Shown in pieces: positions 568-38,167 of a stretch of 41,648 bases of DNA (its first letter is position 1; every line of letters starts with the position of its first letter). The translations under genes were made by a program, and so were the position numbers. The DNA comes from a virus. Its lineage: Duplodnaviria; Heunggongvirae; Uroviricota; Caudoviricetes. The stretch lies in IMG/VR virus record IMGVR_UViG_2541047962_000003, one strand, 5' to 3'. The notes beneath the pieces are model-generated. The model was not told where the DNA came from. It saw only the letters and a list, made by a program, of their open reading frames with translations, and searched no databases.

Positions 568-1413
568 GTGAATAAAAATCCCTGGGATATTCCAGCATGG
601 CACGCTCTGGGCCGAGAAGCATCTTTAGTAACACAGCTCATTGGTTCTGGGGCAACAGCCATAGGTAAAGCCAATTATGCAGACAAAATAGGTGAATATT
701 ACACAGCATTTTTTGGGCTTTCTGTAGGTTTTGAGAGACTTGCTAAACTAATACTTGTTGCACACTATGCCATTGAACACAAAGGAAAAATGCCTGACGA
801 GAATATTGTAAGAAAATTTGGACACAAGCTCATTGAATTAACCAACGAGGTTGATAGTATTTCTAAAAAAATGCAACTATCTCTGAGATATTCACGTCCT
901 ACACATAAAATTACCTACAAAATACTTGAATGTTTAGATTCCTTTGCTGATGCCCGACGGGGACGTTACGCAAATTTCTCCTCATTAAGCAGCCCCAATT
1001 TAACCAATAATGAACCTATTAATAAATGGTGGGGAGAAGTAGCCGAGAGTATCCTTGAAAAACATTATTATTATACAGTTGAACAAAGACGTGTTGAAGA
1101 AAATGCTAGGTTTATCAATGCCACTCTTTCACCGTATACAACGGTCATGTATATGAATGAAAGTACCAACATTATGCAAGACCTTATATCAGCCTCCATC
1201 CGTACTGGACAAAATACCATTGTTCAAAAGTGGGGAAGATTCTATTCTCTTAGCATCGCTCGTTGGCTTGCCACAGTATTAGCAGAACTGTCTGATATAG
1301 CTTCTCATAAATATGGAATAATTAGTTTTTATGGCCTTAGTGAACATTGTTGCAGTTATATAGTTGAAGATAGTTTTTTAAAAAACAGAAAAATATGGCC
1401 ACTTCGCCAATAG
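568..1413 (+). CDS. Hypothetical protein, 281 aa, AT-rich orphan gene; candidate accessory or defence gene
   Basis: Long ORF with GTG start preceded by AAAGGAAAA. Visibly AT-rich compared with flanking phage DNA. No confidently recognised domain. Confidence 0.6.
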   Translation: MNKNPWDIPAWHALGREASLVTQLIGSGATAIGKANYADKIGEYYTAFFGLSVGFERLAKLILVAHYAIEHKGKMPDENIVRKFGHKLIELTNEVDSISKKMQLSLRYSRPTHKITYKILECLDSFADARRGRYANFSSLSSPNLTNNEPINKWWGEVAESILEKHYYYTVEQRRVEENARFINATLSPYTTVMYMNESTNIMQDLISASIRTGQNTIVQKWGRFYSLSIARWLATVLAELSDIASHKYGIISFYGLSEHCCSYIVEDSFLKNRKIWPLRQ

Positions 1414-1814: not shown

Positions 1815-2134
1815 CGGCAAAACGAAATGTGGGAACAGGGGAAAATCAGATACCTGATATGTCATCATATGCATCAGGTTCAGGCTGGCGAAAAATGCCA
1901 GATGGTTCAATTGAACAGTGGGGACGAATTAGTTTTCCTGGTGAACACGGGCCTGTATCCGCCAATGTTTCATTCCCAATTCCATTTACACAGACACCGG
2001 GCATTGTAATTGTGTGCGATGGTGGTTTCGGGGGCGGGAATATGTGGGGGGCGACCAACTGGAGCACTACCGGCTTCATAGCTCACTGCAATTATGGTCT
2101 TGAAGGTGGTGCGTTTTTCGCTAAGGGCTGGTAA
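1800..2134 (+). CDS. Alternative tail-fibre C-terminal (receptor-binding) cassette, promoterless, silent in this orientation
   Basis: The frame encodes ...[10 protein letters not shown]... across the crossover site, paralleling ...ENLGLGEG... in the expressed fibre. Followed directly by a tail-fibre assembly gene. Confidence 0.6.
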
Positions 2135-2577
2135 TGATGAAATATCTGTACGTAAACAACCTGGCATATCCTTACGAACTTCAGTCTCTTTATGTTGAAA
2201 AAGGTGAATGGCCTGAAGAAAAAGGTGTTGATATAGACGAAGTAATTTTCAGGGAATATTTCTATGATACACCACCAGAAGGAAAATACAGATGTGTCGG
2301 AGAGGATGGACTGCCTGCATGGGCAGATATTCCTCCACCAACACGTGAAGAACAAATTGCATCAGCCGAAACTAAAAAGCAGCAATTGATTAACCAGGCC
2401 AACGAATACATCAACAGTAAACAATGGCCAGGTAAAGCATCAATTGGTCGTCTGAAAGGTGAGGAACTGGCGCAATATAATTTGTGGCTGGATTATCTGG
2501 ACGCACTGGAACTGGTCGATACTTCCGGTGCGCCAGATATTGAATGGCCTACGCCTCCGGCAGTTCAGGCCAGATGA
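2134..2577 (+). CDS. Tail-fibre assembly protein (alternative cassette)
   Basis: 147 aa. Position and C-terminal similarity to the 2549-3151 product (both end in ...D-[IV]-[IE]-WP-[TE]-[PL]P...). Tfa-like. Confidence 0.7.
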   Translation: MMKYLYVNNLAYPYELQSLYVEKGEWPEEKGVDIDEVIFREYFYDTPPEGKYRCVGEDGLPAWADIPPPTREEQIASAETKKQQLINQANEYINSKQWPGKASIGRLKGEELAQYNLWLDYLDALELVDTSGAPDIEWPTPPAVQAR

Positions 2578-3151
2578 CGTCCGGCGCTGTGCTGGTATCT
2601 GTTGCCGTCACCGCGTCAATGTAATCCAGCACAGCGTTAAGTCGGGTGTTTTCTGGCTGCGTCAGCTTCCGCCCAGCCTGTAATTTCAGTTGAATCAGAC
2701 TGATGGAAGCCATTGCAGCATCAATCAGCGACTGGCGCTGTGCTTCTGCCGCTTCTACTGCGGCGCTATGCTGTGCCTCGGTATCGGTCACCCATTTCTC
2801 ACCATCCCATTTATCGTATGGCGTTAATGGGGCGATAGTGGTTGTATTTTCGGGGTAATCACCCGGAGTTGTGATTTCTTTGGCGTCTCCCGTTTCGGTG
2901 TTATAGACGATTTCTCCGCGATGGTCTGGCACATATTCCCATGAGTTTAAATCCGCAGAGCGGCAGATGGCATAACCAGCTTTATATGTTCCTGGTGCAT
3001 CTAAACAGGAACATGCCGGAATACCGACACCAACAGCAAGATATTCAGTTGATGTGGAAATATATTCTCGTGTTTCACCATTATAATTATAGACAGTAAT
3101 ATCCCCCGCCTTCGTGGCAATAAACTCGCTATTTAATACGGCATTATCCAT
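2549..3151 (-). CDS. Tail-fibre assembly protein (expressed cassette)
   Basis: 200 aa, immediately downstream of the tail-fibre gene. Tfa-like. Confidence 0.75.
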   Translation of the reverse strand: MDNAVLNSEFIATKAGDITVYNYNGETREYISTSTEYLAVGVGIPACSCLDAPGTYKAGYAICRSADLNSWEYVPDHRGEIVYNTETGDAKEITTPGDYPENTTTIAPLTPYDKWDGEKWVTDTEAQHSAAVEAAEAQRQSLIDAAMASISLIQLKLQAGRKLTQPENTRLNAVLDYIDAVTATDTSTAPDVIWPELPEA

Positions 3152-4014
3152 TATGCAGCCCTCACGATGTAATTAAATGAAAGGTTACGAGGGCGCATTG
3201 ATATCCATGCCCCGGTAAAATTATCCTCCGCTGTCCTTTGAGTACCCGTTATGGAGTTATCTGCTGATGCAGGAACATAATCGCTATTATTTCCTGCTTT
3301 AGGATTAGCTGGGTTTCCAACAGTTATAACAGAATCAGCAGTAGCAAAAGCGATACCTACTTTGACATTAGTATTCAGATCGTAACCGTAATAATCCTGC
3401 AAAGCTGTACGAATAAATGTTGCAGCCTGACCACTTAGCAATGAACGCCCCGTATCAATCCCTCTAGAATCATCCCAGCCACGAATAAACTCACCACGTA
3501 AATCAGGCAATTTATTTGTCGGGTAAGCCTTTGCCAGTTCCGGGTATTCTTCAGCAGAAAAAGCTGCTCCGTTGCATTTCAGCCAGCCTGTTGGAGGTGT
3601 CTCTGAAGGCCACGGAACAGGTGCACCAACAGGTAATGCTGAACCTTCTCCCAAACCAAGGTTTTCGAGAGCCGTTTTCACCGTGCCATCCGATTTGATA
3701 TCACCAAACGGATTCTTGCGGCTCAGGTATTCAACAGCAAACCCCGATCCCAGCAATTCAACAAAACCGGGCAGATCACCATTATCAAGCACATCCCGTT
3801 GCGTTTTATCACTTACAAACTGGGCCAGAGCTGCAGCAATAAAGCTGGCCTGCCGAATAACCTTATTGACTTGCGCACTGGAGGCTTTCCCTGCTGTAAA
3901 TCCAGATAAAAGCGCAGGCAACGCTTCCCATTCCTCCTGCGACATAACATTGGCATTTTTACCCGTTGCGAATGCTTTAAAGTCATTTTTTGCCATCAGA
4001 GTAATACTCCCCAT
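3151..4014 (-). CDS. Tail-fibre protein (constant N-terminal part joined to a variable C-terminal part at the crossover site)
   Basis: 287 aa. The crossover site lies in-frame within ...[11 protein letters not shown].... e14 StfP-like arrangement. Confidence 0.75.
3645..3670. repeat. Invertase crossover site, distal, inside the tail-fibre gene
   Basis: CTTCTCCCAAACCAAGGTTTTCGAGA. Inverted copy of the 1788-1814 site. Confidence 0.65.
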
Positions 4015-5872: not shown

Positions 5873-6225
5873 TACGCCTCCGATGTAACAGTCGTTATTC
5901 CATAGAGAGTGTCGATTTCAGCGGAAAACATGACACGTCGGGTCGTGGTATCCACCGTCGTATTGAAAGAGAGGATTGATTTAACGCCCTGCGTTTCCAG
6001 AATGCGCTTACGGATCGCCAGGTTGTAGGTTTCCGGCTTCTGCTTACCGAGTACGGACTGGATCCACGGAGTCCCCTCAGTGGTGTCGAGAAACCATTGC
6101 CCATACCACAATTCGAATCGCGTTTTTACCGCCTGCGCCACGGCCTCCGGTGAGTTAATCAGCCAGGTGTCATCACCGCTGCCAAAGGTGTAATCGCCAT
6201 CGGCGTCTTCACGTCTGTATCGCAT
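5872..6225 (-). CDS. Baseplate wedge protein (gp46/W-like)
   Basis: 117 aa, translationally coupled upstream of the baseplate J gene. Confidence 0.5.
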   Translation of the reverse strand: MRYRREDADGDYTFGSGDDTWLINSPEAVAQAVKTRFELWYGQWFLDTTEGTPWIQSVLGKQKPETYNLAIRKRILETQGVKSILSFNTTVDTTTRRVMFSAEIDTLYGITTVTSEA

Positions 6226-6977
6226 CAGTTTACTCCGTCGGTATTGCTTCCACCGCGCTGAACACCACCATGAGTGTGCGTATCATCGATTGGCTTGCCG
6301 TTAGCCTTCACGCTACCCAAAAACTCAACAGCACCAGTGATTTTTGAAGCCACACCAGAAACAACAGACCCCACCATGCCTCCCATCCAGGTTAACAGGC
6401 CATGAATGGTTACTTTCTCAGAAAAATCAGCCAGAGGGGCAACCACATCAAGGCCCCCCGGAGCGACAATTTTAATTTTCCTGGTATCAGGATTAAGCTC
6501 AAAATAGGTGCTGCCGTCATCACTACGCAACTGTGTGGCACTGGTATTAATACCGCTAATCTTCCTTGCCTGCGACTGGGGACCGACAATACAAAACGCA
6601 TCCGATAAATCATGCATTCTGTCATCGACCGGCTCCTGTATCCCGCCACTCTGCCACCAGAAATCAATACAACGATCGGCAAAAATCACCAAACATTCAT
6701 CACCGGCTTTAACTGGAAACGTTAGCGTACAGCCTCCGCCACGCGGGAATACCACTGGCACATCCACCAGCAATGGGTAATTTTTGGTAATGCGGTTGCC
6801 GTCGTTATCAATTTCAACGTAACGGATAGCAGGCTGTACAACCGCCGTCACCGCATCAGGAGCGAATGACTGAATAATGCCAGGCAAGGCGACACGGATC
6901 TGGTTCTTTGTTGTTTCCCGTTCAGATTTGAATGTTTCGGCAAGGTCGCCGCTGCGGGTCTGGTCAGATACGGCCAT
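6225..6977 (-). CDS. Baseplate spike/hub assembly protein (gpV-like)
   Basis: 250 aa, first gene of the baseplate block. Call is based on position. Confidence 0.45.
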   Translation of the reverse strand: MAVSDQTRSGDLAETFKSERETTKNQIRVALPGIIQSFAPDAVTAVVQPAIRYVEIDNDGNRITKNYPLLVDVPVVFPRGGGCTLTFPVKAGDECLVIFADRCIDFWWQSGGIQEPVDDRMHDLSDAFCIVGPQSQARKISGINTSATQLRSDDGSTYFELNPDTRKIKIVAPGGLDVVAPLADFSEKVTIHGLLTWMGGMVGSVVSGVASKITGAVEFLGSVKANGKPIDDTHTHGGVQRGGSNTDGVN

Positions 6978-6997
6978 TTAGTAGGCTCCAGAAAGCA

Positions 6998-7019
6998 AAA
7001 AACCCGCCGAAGCGGGTTT
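6998..7019 (-). terminator. Rho-independent terminator after the inserted cassette
   Basis: Minus strand reads CAAACCCGC-ttcg-GCGGGTTTTTTG: GC-rich stem followed by a U-tract, 16 bp after the stop at 7035. Confidence 0.65.
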
Positions 7020-7034
7020 GAAAGGATGTATGGA

Positions 7035-7607
7035 TTATTTAGGTTTCTTCCTACCATAAACAAACACTGTAGTTAATCCTACGAGATCTAAAGTAGCAAG
7101 AGTACCTGCGAACCAAGTGTTACCGCGATTAGCAAAAAACGCAGCCATTATAAGCACTACCATTGCAATGCAAAATCCCATCCATTGCCCACGTTTGTCG
7201 CGTGAAACCGCACCAAGTAATGCATCACTTTGCGTCTTATGCCTATGCTCTTGCTCTTTTTCGGTTAGCCTGAAAATTCTCTCAGCGCCGCCGGGTAATA
7301 TTTGATTATATTGTAAGAGCATAGCAGGAGGTGGGAGTGGTCCCTGAAAAGACTCCTGCTGAAACATGGCAATAACCTTCGGGTTCTTAGAAACTCTCTC
7401 AAGAAGTTCAGGTGTTAACTTCGATTTTAGCTCAGGATCAAGGTTGGCAACTGCAGACAGCTTTTCCACTACTTCCTGAGACTCATCATATTCCGAGGAA
7501 TCAATATCTTCGTCGATACCATCCGAATCAGGAACGGCTTTTTGCGACGCTTTGTTTTCCTGATGCTTTTTGAGAACGGCCGCCTGCTTGCGGGGTTTTG
7601 AACTCAT
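7035..7607 (-). CDS. Membrane-anchored protein, DUF2335-like (C-terminal transmembrane helices); start codon uncertain
   Basis: 190 aa. Motif ...LPGGAERIFRLTEKEQEHRH... followed by two hydrophobic helices. Overlaps the upstream small ORF by 80 bp; an internal GTG with an AGGAAG site is an alternative start. Confidence 0.55.
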   Translation of the reverse strand: MSSKPRKQAAVLKKHQENKASQKAVPDSDGIDEDIDSSEYDESQEVVEKLSAVANLDPELKSKLTPELLERVSKNPKVIAMFQQESFQGPLPPPAMLLQYNQILPGGAERIFRLTEKEQEHRHKTQSDALLGAVSRDKRGQWMGFCIAMVVLIMAAFFANRGNTWFAGTLATLDLVGLTTVFVYGRKKPK

Positions 7608-7767
7608 ACCTGATAACTCTGTTCATGTCACTTGCAATGACTTTAACATCACTTCTTATTGCCCGACAATCAGATCCAGAAGCAGCATATTGCCAGTAAT
7701 CTGTAGTCGGCATAATGTCCATAACACTACCGGCAGCGGCTAAGTAACGATTAACGATTTTCCTCAT
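7528..7767 (-). CDS. Small hypothetical protein (about 80 aa)
   Basis: ATG at 7767 preceded by a strong GGGAGGGG ribosome-binding site. No recognisable domain. Confidence 0.35.
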   Translation of the reverse strand: MRKIVNRYLAAAGSVMDIMPTTDYWQYAASGSDCRAIRSDVKVIASDMNRVIRYEFKTPQAGGRSQKASGKQSVAKSRS

Positions 7768-7932
7768 ATCCCCTCCCATAGTGAACATCAGTGGAGCGCA
7801 GAGTTTACCTTTAAGGTAAAGTATAGACAACTACTGTGTACAGATGGTTCAAAAAATGCGTTAACCAGTATTATTTTGTTAAATTTAGCGCAATTGGCAA
7901 CAGTTCATCCATAATATTATGGACGTCAAAAA

Positions 7933-8277
7933 TCATCGCCCAGCCACTTTTTTACAAGGGAAAGATCCGATGATTTTCGGCGCATCCATGCTGTTCTGCA
8001 GAAGCTGGACATTCAGGAATCGCGTTTCGGTACCAGGGCGACGAATGTATTCAAAGCCGTAGTTGTTACCGTCTTTGGCAGGCATAAGCCCCATGTCTAC
8101 TTTCAAACCATTGGTACCCAGTTCGGTGATTTTTTGAGAGGTAACTCTTTCACCGTTGATAGTCGATAACTCGCCCTGGTTTGCAACCATAGTGTAGCCA
8201 CCGCATTTAACCGTGAAGCCATCCGCCCACGCGCTGCACGCAGAAAAGGCAGCTAACAGAAAAATAATACCCCTCAT
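7933..8277 (-). CDS. Secreted protein or lipoprotein with N-terminal signal peptide (114 aa)
   Basis: N-terminus MRGIIFLLAAFSACSAWADG has a hydrophobic core with both a possible lipobox Cys and an AxA cleavage motif. Confidence 0.55.
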   Translation of the reverse strand: MRGIIFLLAAFSACSAWADGFTVKCGGYTMVANQGELSTINGERVTSQKITELGTNGLKVDMGLMPAKDGNNYGFEYIRRPGTETRFLNVQLLQNSMDAPKIIGSFPCKKVAGR

Positions 8278-8280
8278 TGC

Positions 8281-9342
8281 TCATCCCCTTTGCAAAGCCG
8301 ATTGCGTATACAGATCCGCCGCGCCACGCGCTTCGCACATCATATCCATGTACCACGCCTGGCCCCTTGTGTCGCCAGTGTACATAATCCCGCGCACAAT
8401 ATAAACGCCATCCGTTGCGATGCTGGCAGGCTGCGATGTGGTGCCGCTGAGCGTGATATTTCCGTCCGTGTTCTGGTCGGTGATCTGACCACCAACCATC
8501 GCAATATCGTTGTTCGACAACGCGGTACGATAGACGGAAGCCTGATCCAGCTGAATGAGCCCGTTAACCCGGATGTTCGGATTAATAAGCGCGCGGACGT
8601 TTACGCCGTTACCGATAGTCTGCTGCGGCATGCCAATAAGCCCGGTAGCGCTGTTGAGCACAATCGCTTCGTGAACATATTCGTTATTCGCCACCATCTG
8701 GCGCTGACCGTCCACGAATTGCCATGTTGCGCCACATTGTCCGGCTACGTTATCCATTAGATGCCGCGTCATGCCAAAGAGTACCCGCCCCCGGGGGAAT
8801 ACAGTAGCAGGCATTTCAGGCGTCAGGCCTTCGGTCGCGCCTTTGGCTTCGAAGTCTTTCATCAGCGCACGGTTCACATCAGCGACCGTGTAACCGGCAG
8901 CCAGCGTCTGTGAGGTTATACTGGTGGCAAAAGCCAGATCAGTATCTGCTGCCTGAATCAGGACGTAGGTATCAACCGGACTGTCTTTTCCTGTGACCGA
9001 GTAGCGAATTTCACCGCTGAAAATCAGTCCGTAGTTGCGGCCATCTCTCTGGCCCACGTCCGCCGCGTCAACTTCCCGCACGGTCCCTACGTCGCTTGCT
9101 GACACCTCCGGCGCGATACCGTCGTAACCCGCAATCAGACGCACTTTCGAAAACTCCTGCCCGGTAATTCGGTTCACAGTATCTGCCGAGAGGTTATAAA
9201 TTTTGATAGTCCCTACCCGGGACGCGCTGCTGATGTTGAACCAGTCGATCGTAAAGGTGACTTTGAAATCACTTAGCTCAATTCCCTGACCGTTCCCGTC
9301 CACAAGCTGCAGCTCGAAATGTCTCATCCAGTTCTGTGACAT
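8281..9342 (-). CDS. Tail/baseplate hub-like protein
   Basis: 353 aa, in the tail block downstream of the tape measure gene. Call is positional. Confidence 0.5.
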   Translation of the reverse strand: MSQNWMRHFELQLVDGNGQGIELSDFKVTFTIDWFNISSASRVGTIKIYNLSADTVNRITGQEFSKVRLIAGYDGIAPEVSASDVGTVREVDAADVGQRDGRNYGLIFSGEIRYSVTGKDSPVDTYVLIQAADTDLAFATSITSQTLAAGYTVADVNRALMKDFEAKGATEGLTPEMPATVFPRGRVLFGMTRHLMDNVAGQCGATWQFVDGQRQMVANNEYVHEAIVLNSATGLIGMPQQTIGNGVNVRALINPNIRVNGLIQLDQASVYRTALSNNDIAMVGGQITDQNTDGNITLSGTTSQPASIATDGVYIVRGIMYTGDTRGQAWYMDMMCEARGAADLYTQSALQRG

Positions 9343-33210: not shown

Positions 33211-33852
33211 ATGTCACAGCCCGTATTAACTAATCACCTTAAAACTCAAATCATCAATAACGCACTTGAGAAAGCGGGTATCCCCAAACGTAAATCAGCA
33301 CTACGAGCTGCTCGTGTTGAATGGGCCGAACGTGTTCGGCTTGCAGCTATCGGGGGCGTAGAGAAAGAAGCTGAAATATTAAAAAATATAAAAAAGATTG
33401 AATCCATGGTAACAAAAATCCCTGATTCATTAAAAACCAATAGTTCTTTAATTCGAAAAGATTGCTGCATATATCTCAATCTGGCTGGAGCCAGAGCAAA
33501 CATTTATTTCAATGGCAACTACAGAGGTTATGAATCAGGAGCCCCCGAGCATATTAATAAAATAGCACCTGCAGAATTTACTCTACTTGGCGAAGATCCT
33601 CTGGTAACGGAGTTTTATAGCTTTGATGCTCTCTACACACAAATTAAAAGTGATGAAACCGAAATCATACAGAACGTCAGCGCGGCTCTAAATAAAGTTC
33701 GGACAGTAAAACGATTACTGGATGTATGGCCCGAAGCTAAAGAACTGCTTCCAACAGACGCACCGCCAGTCCCTTTAGCACCAGCAGTACATCGAGAGAC
33801 ATTAAATGAAATGATAGGCCTTCCTACCAATACAGTGTCTGATACTCAATAA
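33211..33852 (+). CDS. Hypothetical protein, AT-rich
   Basis: ATG at 33211 preceded by GAGGGAAAG. No domain recognised. Confidence 0.5.
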   Translation: MSQPVLTNHLKTQIINNALEKAGIPKRKSALRAARVEWAERVRLAAIGGVEKEAEILKNIKKIESMVTKIPDSLKTNSSLIRKDCCIYLNLAGARANIYFNGNYRGYESGAPEHINKIAPAEFTLLGEDPLVTEFYSFDALYTQIKSDETEIIQNVSAALNKVRTVKRLLDVWPEAKELLPTDAPPVPLAPAVHRETLNEMIGLPTNTVSDTQ

Positions 33853-34535
33853 CAAGGGGGATGCTTATTATATGATTTTGAACGTTTTACAATCTCGTTA
33901 AGAGGCGTGAAATCAAAATCTCTGAATAACACATCAGGATACTTCGCTCTTGCTTTATCCAGCAAACCAGTTAAAGTATTTTTTGTGTTACCCAACATTG
34001 TATTAACCGCCACTACATGTCTAATTTCTGGAGGTTTATCTATACCACCAGAAATTGCTTCATTAAGAACCGACGCCAGTGGGGTTTGTCCCTTACTTGT
34101 TGAATCCCACAGCGTCATTAACAGACGAGCTGCGTCTATAAATAGCTTTTTGTCAGCATTTGGCTTGACAGTAATACCAGAACTACCTGAGCCAGAACCG
34201 GAACGTTCTATTGCTGCACTGGTATCCGATTTCATAGGATTAAATAACGGCAGCTCTGTACAACCGATACGCCGAATGAAATCCTTTGCAACATCTCTAC
34301 CACAGAAAAAAGCCCCTGTACAATTTTCATCAGAGCGTTTTTTAAATGAAAAACAATAGTACTGATCGGTTAACGGATAACCGGAATAACTGGTTTTAGT
34401 TTGTCCAGTAATAAGTTTCAGGTGTGCAACAGGCTGAATAATAAAATCCCGAACTATCGCATCTTTTATGTCGTTACCACGGTGACAATAATATTCAGGT
34501 AATCCATTAGGCTGTCTCTTATTACCCACAGTCAT
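33846..34535 (-). CDS. Hypothetical protein (229 aa) with Cys/His-rich N-terminal region and Ser/Gly linker; antisense to the early operon
   Basis: AT-rich. Convergent with the preceding gene (7-bp overlap). Divergent AT-rich promoter region shared with the polymerase gene. Confidence 0.5.
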   Translation of the reverse strand: MTVGNKRQPNGLPEYYCHRGNDIKDAIVRDFIIQPVAHLKLITGQTKTSYSGYPLTDQYYCFSFKKRSDENCTGAFFCGRDVAKDFIRRIGCTELPLFNPMKSDTSAAIERSGSGSGSSGITVKPNADKKLFIDAARLLMTLWDSTSKGQTPLASVLNEAISGGIDKPPEIRHVVAVNTMLGNTKNTLTGLLDKARAKYPDVLFRDFDFTPLNEIVKRSKSYNKHPPCY

Positions 34536-37441: not shown

Positions 37442-38167
37442 TCATTCTGAGCGATTTTTCTTGAGCTTAGAAGCTTTTAAAAAACATACTTTTAGTTGTT
37501 GTGTTTCTTTTATGCTTACAGGAATTAATTTCCCCTCAATTCCTTCGACACTCATAAATTCAGAGCTATTTTTTTTACAGTTCCCCAAGACAAATTTTCC
37601 GTTATAGCTTTCGATAATATAAGCATCATATTTTTTAGAATAAAAAAGAGGCTCATCTGATAAGTATGCCCATGCCCACCCAAGGACTGAAGGAAGCATT
37701 GCTATGGATATAAAAAACATAACCCCATGAGTTTTGTTTTTTATTCTAAATTCATTCCTAATAAAAACAGATACTGCCCTGACACTGATAGGGCTAATAA
37801 ATCCCAATAGTATTGCTTGGGTAGCCACATCCCTTATGGATTTTTCATAAAGGTATGAGCTACCGCCATATAAATACATTGTCCAGTATGAAAGCAAAGA
37901 GGCCAAAATGAAGAAAAATAAATACACCCCCCATGGAATATTCTTCTCTTCAGTATCAATATGCAGCAAAGCGACTAAGGTGCACAAAAGTCCTAATGCA
38001 ATAACAGAAAACTTAACTATTTCCTCAATCCCAATAGAAATAAAACTTACAGGGAATCCATAAAATGAGCTGTATCCTTTGTAAAAAGAAAAAGCCATAA
38101 AATAAAGGGCGGCCAAGAGAACCGTTGTAATTGATAAATCTTTTACATTCATGATGTTCAAGAGCAC
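37442..38167 (-). CDS. Polytopic membrane protein (241 aa), very AT-rich, antisense to the early operon
   Basis: Four to six hydrophobic helices. Inserted between the VRR-NUC and SNF2 genes on the opposite strand. Confidence 0.55.
   Translation of the reverse strand: MLLNIMNVKDLSITTVLLAALYFMAFSFYKGYSSFYGFPVSFISIGIEEIVKFSVIALGLLCTLVALLHIDTEEKNIPWGVYLFFFILASLLSYWTMYLYGGSSYLYEKSIRDVATQAILLGFISPISVRAVSVFIRNEFRIKNKTHGVMFFISIAMLPSVLGWAWAYLSDEPLFYSKKYDAYIIESYNGKFVLGNCKKNSSEFMSVEGIEGKLIPVSIKETQQLKVCFLKASKLKKNRSE

Follow-up and report, generated by a model that had tools for sequence, protein, structure and literature searches.

A two-part accessory region in the tail operon of an Escherichia coli prophage carries a mobile DUF2335 gene pair, a candidate phage-exclusion module

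Introduction

The tail operon of the virus recorded in IMG/VR as IMGVR_UViG_2541047962_000003 (Duplodnaviria; Heunggongvirae; Uroviricota; Caudoviricetes) raises the question of what three small open reading frames (ORFs), here designated ORF1, ORF2 and ORF3 (positions 7,035 to 8,277), are doing between the baseplate hub gene and the baseplate spike gene. The whole stretch of DNA analysed, hereafter the window, comprises 41,648 nucleotides and is a complete Escherichia coli prophage of the type of Salmonella phage SEN34 (Brunovirus), inserted between yfhH and yfhL. Its late genes are all located on the minus strand in a single long operon, with a Q-family antiterminator upstream, and the local gene order is tape measure (12243-10234), Dit-like protein, Pam3-gp18-type plug, hub, ORF1, an AT-rich gap, ORF2, ORF3, a terminator, spike, sheath-initiator-like protein and baseplate J.

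An initial annotation of the locus had described the three genes as one cassette inserted in the tail operon, with a terminator of its own, and had compared its first product with the receptor-blocking lipoproteins Cor and Llp, adding that joint action of the three genes was not certain. The three ORFs, the gap and the terminator were all found on the minus strand, with minor corrections of size: the gap, given as roughly 100 bp, measured 165 bp, and ORF2, given as 80 amino acids (aa), has 79, while the strong ribosome-binding site (RBS) reported for it was confirmed. The three ORFs are real genes and not chance ORFs; each of them belongs to a conserved family. The features of the region are detailed in Table 1.

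Table 1. Features of the hub-to-spike region. Positions are those of the window unless a locus is given; E-values are in parentheses.
Feature	Position	Strand	Characteristics
Baseplate hub gene, left conserved flank	8281..9342	-	phrog_196 'baseplate hub' (4.6e-89); PF22759 E217_GP41 (3.4e-5)
ORF1, exported protein	7933..8277	-	114 aa; signal peptide residues 1-18; mature protein a predicted 8-stranded β-barrel; two invariant Cys
ORF1 signal peptide	8224..8277	-	MRGIIFLLAAFSACSAWA, cleaved before DG, read from the sequence; AxA at -3/-1 in the family alignment
AT-rich regulatory gap	7768..7932	-	36% GC
ORF2, soluble basic protein	7528..7767	-	79 aa; GGAGGGG 5 nt before ATG; phrog_26284 (3.7e-12)
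ORF3, DUF2335 inner-membrane protein	7035..7607	-	190 aa; PF10097 (1.8e-18); phrog_3996 (1.2e-46)
ORF3 DUF2335 domain, juxtamembrane	residues 92-141, nt 7185-7334	-	short helix and one long helix
ORF3 transmembrane hairpin	residues ~142-187, nt 7047-7184	-	hydropathy and AlphaFold2 model
Variable cargo segment (gap, ORF2, ORF3)	~7023..7935	-	homology breaks, GC, presence/absence
Intrinsic terminator	6990..7019	-	stem 7019-7000 and T-run; directly before the spike RBS
Baseplate spike gene, right conserved flank	6225..6977	-	phage N-terminal-domain family (2.7e-43) and GpV Apex motif
ORF1 replacement, lipoprotein	L015:944-1669	-	241 aa; lipobox LTSC; no Pfam match
ORF1 replacement, signal-peptide protein	L033:5151-5615	+	154 aa; protein found in L028 and L031-L035; likewise coupled to the hub stop; no Pfam match

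Results and Discussion

Cargo Slot between the Hub and Spike Genes

Comparison with related phages showed that the interval from hub to spike is a two-part accessory region, in which a position for an exported protein is followed by a recombinational cargo slot. The left limit of the slot is the end of ORF1, and its right limit is the conserved terminator before the spike gene. Homology to relatives with other cargo stopped at 7007-7022 and resumed at 7936-7955, and phages 689R2 (vB_EcoM-689R2), YP3 and SEN34 have different cargo in place of the intervening segment, which holds the gap, ORF2 and ORF3. The G+C content (GC) of this segment was 0.43, against 0.55 in the hub gene, and the GC at third codon positions (GC3) was 0.36 in ORF2 and 0.39 in ORF3, against 0.62 in the hub and 0.48 in the spike gene. 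A total of 5,426 complete E. coli genomes was surveyed; this tail region was present in 353, with DUF2335 cargo in 16 of them and without it in the other 337. Strains with the DUF2335 cargo include FDAARGOS_144, M-17 and BEN2908.

The alternative cargo at the slot comprised a DUF4282 membrane protein, a YafO-toxin pair, T5orf172/MUG113, weakly HEPN-like and weakly PycTM-like proteins, and unknowns. The cargo gene of phage 689R2 (L001:2339-2851, minus strand) encodes a protein of 170 aa with an Rx4H motif (RNNLFH) and a weak HEPN sign, and that of strain DEC5E (L013:943-1371, minus strand) a protein of 142 aa with a marginal match to PADLOC HEPN_IX (E = 0.009).

In the terminator, a G+C-rich stem of 8 bp, which starts 16 nt past the ORF3 stop, carries a UUCG loop and precedes a U6 run (ΔG -12.8 kcal/mol, z = -2.7). 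This was the best terminator on the sense strand in 20 kb of late operon, and the only hairpin of this quality with a canonical U-tract and in an intergenic position. Nine loci, each with a different cargo, share the hairpin, the T-run and the spike RBS, and the pairing is retained where stem and loop vary. The terminator is kept in L001, L003, L013-L015 and L017-L019, including Klebsiella phage Mulock, and is absent only in YP3. The strength and position assigned to it by the initial annotation were correct, but its conservation regardless of the cargo indicates that it is a backbone part of the slot scaffold and does not belong to the cassette.

By its sequence marks, namely absence from close relatives, deviant composition, a gap upstream and a terminator downstream, the ORF2-ORF3 part fits a moron (as defined by Hendrix and Juhala; PMC3594210). 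The description as an inserted cassette therefore holds for the gap, ORF2 and ORF3, which are accessory cargo, but not for ORF1, which belongs to the backbone; among the relatives compared for synteny, conservation was found for ORF1 only, ORF2 and ORF3 being absent from the close ones.

This architecture falls within that of known tail-operon morons and phage hotspots and is hence not surprising. Like the gp15 moron of HK97 (Juhala et al. 2000; Cumby et al. 2012; PMC3594210), it is an extra transcription unit of deviant GC that ends in a terminator, encodes a small protein of the inner membrane and lies in the tail operon of a temperate phage with Q-type late antitermination. It differs in that gp15 belongs to the YebO family, with one transmembrane (TM) helix and without sequence relationship to ORF3, whereas the present unit consists of two genes, one of them for an obligate soluble partner, and its terminator is part of the phage backbone. 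The Z/fun site of P2 and other hypervariability hotspots (Rousset et al. 2022; iLund4u preprint 10.1101/2024.10.15.618418) are likewise fixed sites flanked by conserved genes for tail or baseplate in a temperate myovirus, at which recombination in these flanks exchanges unrelated cargo, much of it defence-like. The slot described here differs in its SEN34/Brunovirus lineage, in its hub/ORF1 and spike flanks, in the conserved closing terminator, and in that most of its cargo has no defence annotation. The slot is discussed neither in the paper describing SEN34 nor in a paper on Salmonella prophage cargo.

The ORF2-DUF2335 Pair

The description of ORF3 as a DUF2335-like membrane protein of 190 aa was confirmed. 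The full 50-position profile of PF10097 was matched with 66.6 bits, against a gathering cut-off of 25, and two hydrophobic helices are located at the C-terminus. The family comprises 45 clusters and phrog_3996. In the AlphaFold2 (AF2) model, a long helix (residues 107-160) continues into the first TM helix and is followed by a turn of three residues, the second TM helix (164-187) and a basic tail; the predicted local distance difference test (pLDDT) score was 84-93 across residues 91-180, while residues 1-57, first basic and then acidic, were modelled with low confidence. The topology prediction proposed in the initial annotation gave, from this model and hydropathy, two C-terminal TM helices with both ends in the cytoplasm. 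All conserved residues are likewise predicted to be cytoplasmic, with almost no periplasmic exposure, and therefore ORF3 should not be able to mask an outer-membrane receptor.

ORF2 carries the motif RYLxAAGSVMDIMPxTDY...SDxxAIRSDxxxIxxDM, which in the family as a whole reads RRYLxAAGSVMDIMPSTDY...SDxxxIRxDxxxIxxDM; the members have 64-79 aa. Its relatives form 11 clusters of small proteins (64-76 aa) at 50% identity, together with phrog_26284, and none of the 14 members scanned had a Pfam match. The gene was left unannotated by the Prokaryotic Genome Annotation Pipeline (PGAP) in the one genome checked, FDAARGOS_144. It overlaps ORF3 by 80 nt (7528-7607) in a different frame. The closest relative of ORF2, P0166 (57% identity), has a similar basic C-terminal extension; most members end at the start of the DUF2335 gene or just inside it.

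To characterize the association of both genes, an iterated hidden Markov model (HMM) search was carried out on 61 loci bearing DUF2335, 49 of them from IMG/VR. An ORF2-family gene was directly upstream of the DUF2335 gene, or fused to it, in 56 of the 61 loci, and no match to the family was found elsewhere in those loci; at least two of the five loci missed by the HMM carry a related ORF2 motif by eye. A member lies immediately upstream of DUF2335, or overlaps it, in Citrobacter koseri, Proteus mirabilis, Pluralibacter and several phage contigs, and in Xenorhabdus the DUF2335 protein itself carries the ORF2 motif as an N-terminal fusion. Starts and stops were coupled or overlapping in the four contexts examined by base or gene call. 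In the viral contig L063 (5109-6339, plus strand), two ORF2-like/DUF2335 pairs occur in tandem, followed by a small two-gene unit that resembles a toxin-antitoxin system.

The genomic positions of the pair were diverse. Besides the Brunovirus slot (the window, L020 and L025-L035), it was found in siphoviruses (L023, L039-L048, L050-L055), where it separates the tail chaperone from the tape-measure gene and often has a lipoprotein gene beside it; this is the same chaperone-to-tape-measure position as that of HK97 gp15. It follows a cI-type repressor directly in Proteus (L008-L010), L036 and L049; the Xenorhabdus fusion is located after a divergent cI/cro pair, and in Citrobacter the pair lies between gtrABC and the attachment (att) end. 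The copies of Citrobacter and Proteus end in terminators of their own, and these copies must have a promoter of their own, because the upstream gene is divergent in the former and followed by a terminator in the latter. All of these are classic places for prophage-expressed genes, an indirect sign of possible expression in the lysogen. The distribution and linkage indicate that ORF2 and ORF3 are an obligate pair, one foreign low-GC module that moves among unrelated temperate phages. The siphovirus neighbourhood, with an exported protein next to the DUF2335 pair, resembles that of the window; it was noted at L039:6868-7449, L050:7100-7498 and L055:7746-8132 (plus strand), and one of the lipoprotein genes has a BamE domain (1.6e-6).

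The gap upstream of ORF2 has features of a regulatory region. L020 shares about 95% identity with the window over the 100 nt before ORF2 but only 81% over the ORF3 protein, which points to a functional 5' region. These 100 nt include a 17-bp palindrome (7804-7820), and a perfect 16-bp palindrome is located at 7908-7923; the latter is a hairpin without a U-tract and so not a terminator. The prophage has no further copy of either palindrome, the immunity region included, and nothing was found that links them to its repressor. Across 20 kb of late operon, the strongest sigma-70-like match (TTTGCA-16-TATAAT, 10/12; 7174-7147, minus strand) falls within the stretch of ORF3 that encodes the TM helices, about 130 nt short of the terminator, and is probably an artefact of AT-rich foreign DNA.

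ORF1, an Exported Protein Coupled to the Hub

The start codon of ORF1 is located 3 nt past the hub stop and its Shine-Dalgarno sequence overlaps the 3' end of the hub gene, leaving no room for a promoter; ORF1 is translationally coupled to the hub. A homologue occupies the same post-hub position in phages 689R2, YP3 and SEN34 and in Klebsiella phage Mulock; of 10 loci compared, 9 had it, as did another three contexts of metagenomic or genomic origin, and the relatives with it are from Escherichia, Salmonella, Yersinia and Klebsiella. The family comprises 395 clusters at 90% identity, with proteins of 103-115 aa from Escherichia, Salmonella, Klebsiella, Raoultella and Kluyvera.

In the alignment of 21 representatives of the family, A16 was nearly invariant and A18 invariant, forming an AxA site, and C25 and C108 were invariant, with a probable disulfide between both; the Cys of the signal peptide (position 14 in this copy) was absent in most. 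ORF1 thus appears to be a periplasmic protein exported by Sec and cleaved by signal peptidase I (SPase I), and not a conserved lipoprotein. Of the earlier description of this gene, the length of 114 aa and the signal peptide were confirmed, but the lipobox was not.

The GC3 of ORF1 was 0.52. Its alleles were 62-99% identical beside hubs that are 96-98% identical among E. coli relatives, and in some near-identical tail modules it was swapped, beside hubs 97% identical, for an unrelated exported protein; in L028 and L031-L035, a remnant of 57 nt of the 3' end of ORF1 is still present beside the secreted protein of 154 aa. Since unrelated exported proteins replace it in near-identical tail modules, ORF1 seems to be dispensable for the tail, and since it is exported it should not be a component of the virion. 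The post-hub position always encodes an exported protein and is a slot for such proteins with three unrelated occupants. ORF1 is therefore backbone-associated, allelically variable and not part of the insert, and the reservation about joint action of the three genes was justified, ORF1 being separate from ORF2-ORF3.

No Pfam family was matched by ORF1 at E ≤ 0.1 and no NCBIfam entry, and its PHROG is of unknown function. The search of its fold against BFVD gave template modelling (TM) scores ≤ 0.55, with nothing convincing and no match annotated as Cor or Llp. The fold matches were generic: avidins, Cap15 barrels and designed barrels scored equal to or above MliC, PliC and PhiA. A lysozyme inhibitor of the MliC/PliC type was considered and set aside, being a lead only, as these matches were no better than those to avidins and no Pfam MliC match was found; the signature motifs of MliC are not visible in ORF1.

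Most likely, although with low confidence, ORF1 is a late-expressed envelope factor for exclusion or for protection of the progeny. It resembles Cor (phi80/N15), Llp (T5) and T4 Spackle in being small, exported and encoded in or beside tail genes, and its alleles vary as would be expected of a protein in an arms race. However, it is not a conserved lipoprotein, has no sequence or fold match to them and is apparently late-expressed; Spackle, the periplasmic inhibitor of the tail lysozyme of T4, is helical, whereas ORF1 is a predicted β-barrel. No test thus favoured the analogy with receptor blocking by Cor and Llp for ORF1, and ORF3 would be unable to mask a receptor.

Putative Function of ORF2 and ORF3

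By analogy with known prophage genes, ORF2 and ORF3 are tentatively regarded as a lysogen-expressed phage-exclusion module of the inner membrane, a reading to which we give a little less than an even chance. In the lysogen, the two genes would be transcribed from their own regulatory region, and the conserved terminator would shield the spike gene from this transcript; during lytic growth, late transcription antiterminated by Q would read through the terminator, as expected from lambda-type biology. ORF3 would form a helical hairpin in the inner membrane with its DUF2335 domain on the cytoplasmic face, ORF2 would be a cytoplasmic partner that binds or regulates it, and both would jointly protect the lysogen against other phages. 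The larger share of this likelihood is placed on a logic similar to that of RexA and RexB, with a sensor or regulator and a membrane effector, and the smaller remainder on a block of DNA entry at the inner membrane. The RexAB-like logic is favoured over a pure entry block of the gp15 or SieA kind because the partner is cytoplasmic and nearly universal, and because the conserved sequence of ORF3 faces the cytoplasm; the two are not separable computationally.

RexA and RexB of lambda, as well as gp30 and gp31 of mycobacteriophage Sbash, are prophage-expressed pairs in which a soluble protein is combined with a small one of the inner membrane. The position of rexAB is that taken by the ORF2-DUF2335 pair in Proteus, L036 and L049, directly downstream of cI and in the same orientation. 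The resemblance is one of logic only; no homology was found by any search (Pfam, PHROG, PADLOC), ORF3 has two TM helices, in comparison with four in RexB, and the members of the ORF2 family (64-79 aa) are much smaller than RexA (279 aa).

Several observations weigh against an exclusion function. None of the three ORFs matched PADLOC-DB v2 at E ≤ 1, none had an NCBIfam match, the sequence searches of the PDB with all three families were empty, and the fold search with ORF3 was uninformative. No characterisation of DUF2335 was found in the searchable literature, where searches by accession and by PF10097 yielded nothing useful. The gap has a single sigma-70-like match, which is weak (TTGCCA-16-CAAAAT, 7900-7873, 9/12) and falls in the part without conservation in L020. 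The overlapping two-gene operon and the palindromes upstream are equally typical of toxin-antitoxin or addiction modules without an anti-phage role. Finally, ORF1 has no promoter of its own and is probably not expressed in the lysogen, which weakens for this gene a classical role in superinfection exclusion. Papers on type VI secretion effectors and on a Pseudomonas genomic island, in which DUF2335 appears as a phospholipase or Tle1-like domain, were judged to be irrelevant and to reflect a confusion with DUF2235.

The nearest alternative functions concern the same two genes. It is unlikely, on the whole, that the pair acts simply by blocking the entry of superinfecting genomes at the inner membrane, as HK97 gp15 and P22 SieA do, with ORF3 acting on the translocation channel or a host factor and ORF2 as a partner for assembly or stability. 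Such a role would suit an inner-membrane protein (hydropathy, AF2) encoded in tail-operon moron positions of two unrelated phage lineages, one of them the chaperone/tape-measure site equivalent to that of gp15, and HK97 gp15 itself, a small moron protein of the inner membrane, blocks injection (PMC3594210). However, the periplasmic loop of ORF3 has only about 3-4 residues and its conserved sequence is all cytoplasmic. It also counts against this role that the known blockers of entry gp15, SieA, Imm and Ltp each consist of a single protein, whereas almost all DUF2335 loci examined here include a soluble partner in the cytoplasm. A serious alternative, doubtful as it is, sees in ORF2-ORF3 a toxin-antitoxin-like addiction or stabilisation module, or another kind of lysogenic conversion (membrane physiology, stress tolerance), without any anti-phage role. 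The co-directional coupled genes with their overlap, the small basic first gene, both palindromes, the horizontal movement of the module and the YafO toxin pair in the same slot of other prophages all agree with it; on the other hand, neither ORF2 nor ORF3 matched a known toxin or antitoxin family (Pfam, NCBIfam, PADLOC), and natural ORF2-ORF3 fusions are unusual for systems with a labile antitoxin. The sole adjacency to a Panacea antitoxin domain, in L024, belongs to a separate downstream pair: the SocA/Panacea gene starts 10 nt after DUF2335 but shares a 1-nt overlap with the gene that follows, its actual partner, while DUF2335 retains an ORF2-like gene upstream. DUF2335 was accordingly rejected as a PanT membrane toxin, and it is not listed in the supplements of the Panacea/NetFlax papers.

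The other alternatives include ORF1. That all three genes form one autonomous inserted cassette, with a lipoprotein masking the receptor in the manner of Cor or Llp, is considered quite improbable. The signal peptide of ORF1, in which Cys14 of this copy fits a loose lipobox (FSAC), the exported proteins always found after the hub, a true lipoprotein in L015 (LTSC) among them, and the divergence of the ORF1 alleles, far higher than that of the hub, would speak for it. However, the recombination boundaries separate ORF1 from ORF2-ORF3, and ORF1 is coupled to the hub without space for a promoter and conserved across genera, in a family with an AxA SPase I site, no conserved lipobox and no match to Cor or Llp in sequence or fold. 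Even less credible, to the point of being nearly discarded, is that these are ordinary tail genes for structural or assembly components of the baseplate. Their location inside the tail operon and the synteny of ORF1 in nearly all relatives would be explained, but a cleavable export signal in ORF1 and the integral membrane nature of ORF3 should be incompatible with tail assembly in the cytoplasm, and near-identical tail modules exist without ORF2-ORF3 (337 of 353) or without ORF1 (L015, L028, L031-L035). The lysogen-expressed exclusion module is thus retained as the preferred, tentative reading of ORF2-ORF3.

Other Features of the Prophage

The window was identical to the prophage of E. coli FDAARGOS_144 except for an inverted tail-fibre segment, the remainder being 99.9-100% identical. 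In this segment (1815-3645, and 1465-1732), the C-terminus of the tail fibre and the tail-fibre-assembly gene are inverted, with 89-94% identity, and a truncated recombinase pseudogene adjoins it; it looks like an invertible host-range segment of the Gin/Cin type whose invertase has decayed. A hypothetical gene of 281 aa (568-1413, plus strand), in a stretch of 36-40% GC at the yfhH end of the prophage and outside the tail genes, is likely another cargo gene. Two hypothetical genes on the minus strand (~37442-38152 and 33846-34535), in low-GC pockets (0.36 and 0.40), are surrounded by the replication module on the opposite strand (DUF2800, DUF2815, Nmad5, DNA polymerase, VRR-NUC and SNF2) and look like further inserted accessory genes.

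Conclusions

In this common family of enterobacterial prophages, the slot between hub and spike is precisely bounded by conserved flanks and a conserved terminator, so that it can easily be mined for accessory and defence genes, most of its cargo being unannotated. The exported-protein position directly after the hub suggests an envelope-directed function tied to the tail tip. DUF2335 proteins come with an obligate small partner that is undescribed in Pfam, which turns a domain of unknown function into a candidate exclusion system. It is possible, although this is held with clearly less confidence than the function proposed for the present copy, that the ORF2-DUF2335 pair is a widespread and previously unrecognised two-component prophage immunity system, formed by a small cytoplasmic sensor or regulator and an inner-membrane effector with two TM helices, and present in hotspots across many lineages of temperate phages. 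In that case the predicted β-barrel of ORF1, in its slot for exported envelope factors, could act in the periplasm on incoming tails, for example by inhibiting the lytic transglycosylase of the tape measure, and the hub-spike interval would be a dedicated, terminator-insulated defence slot following that of the exported factors.

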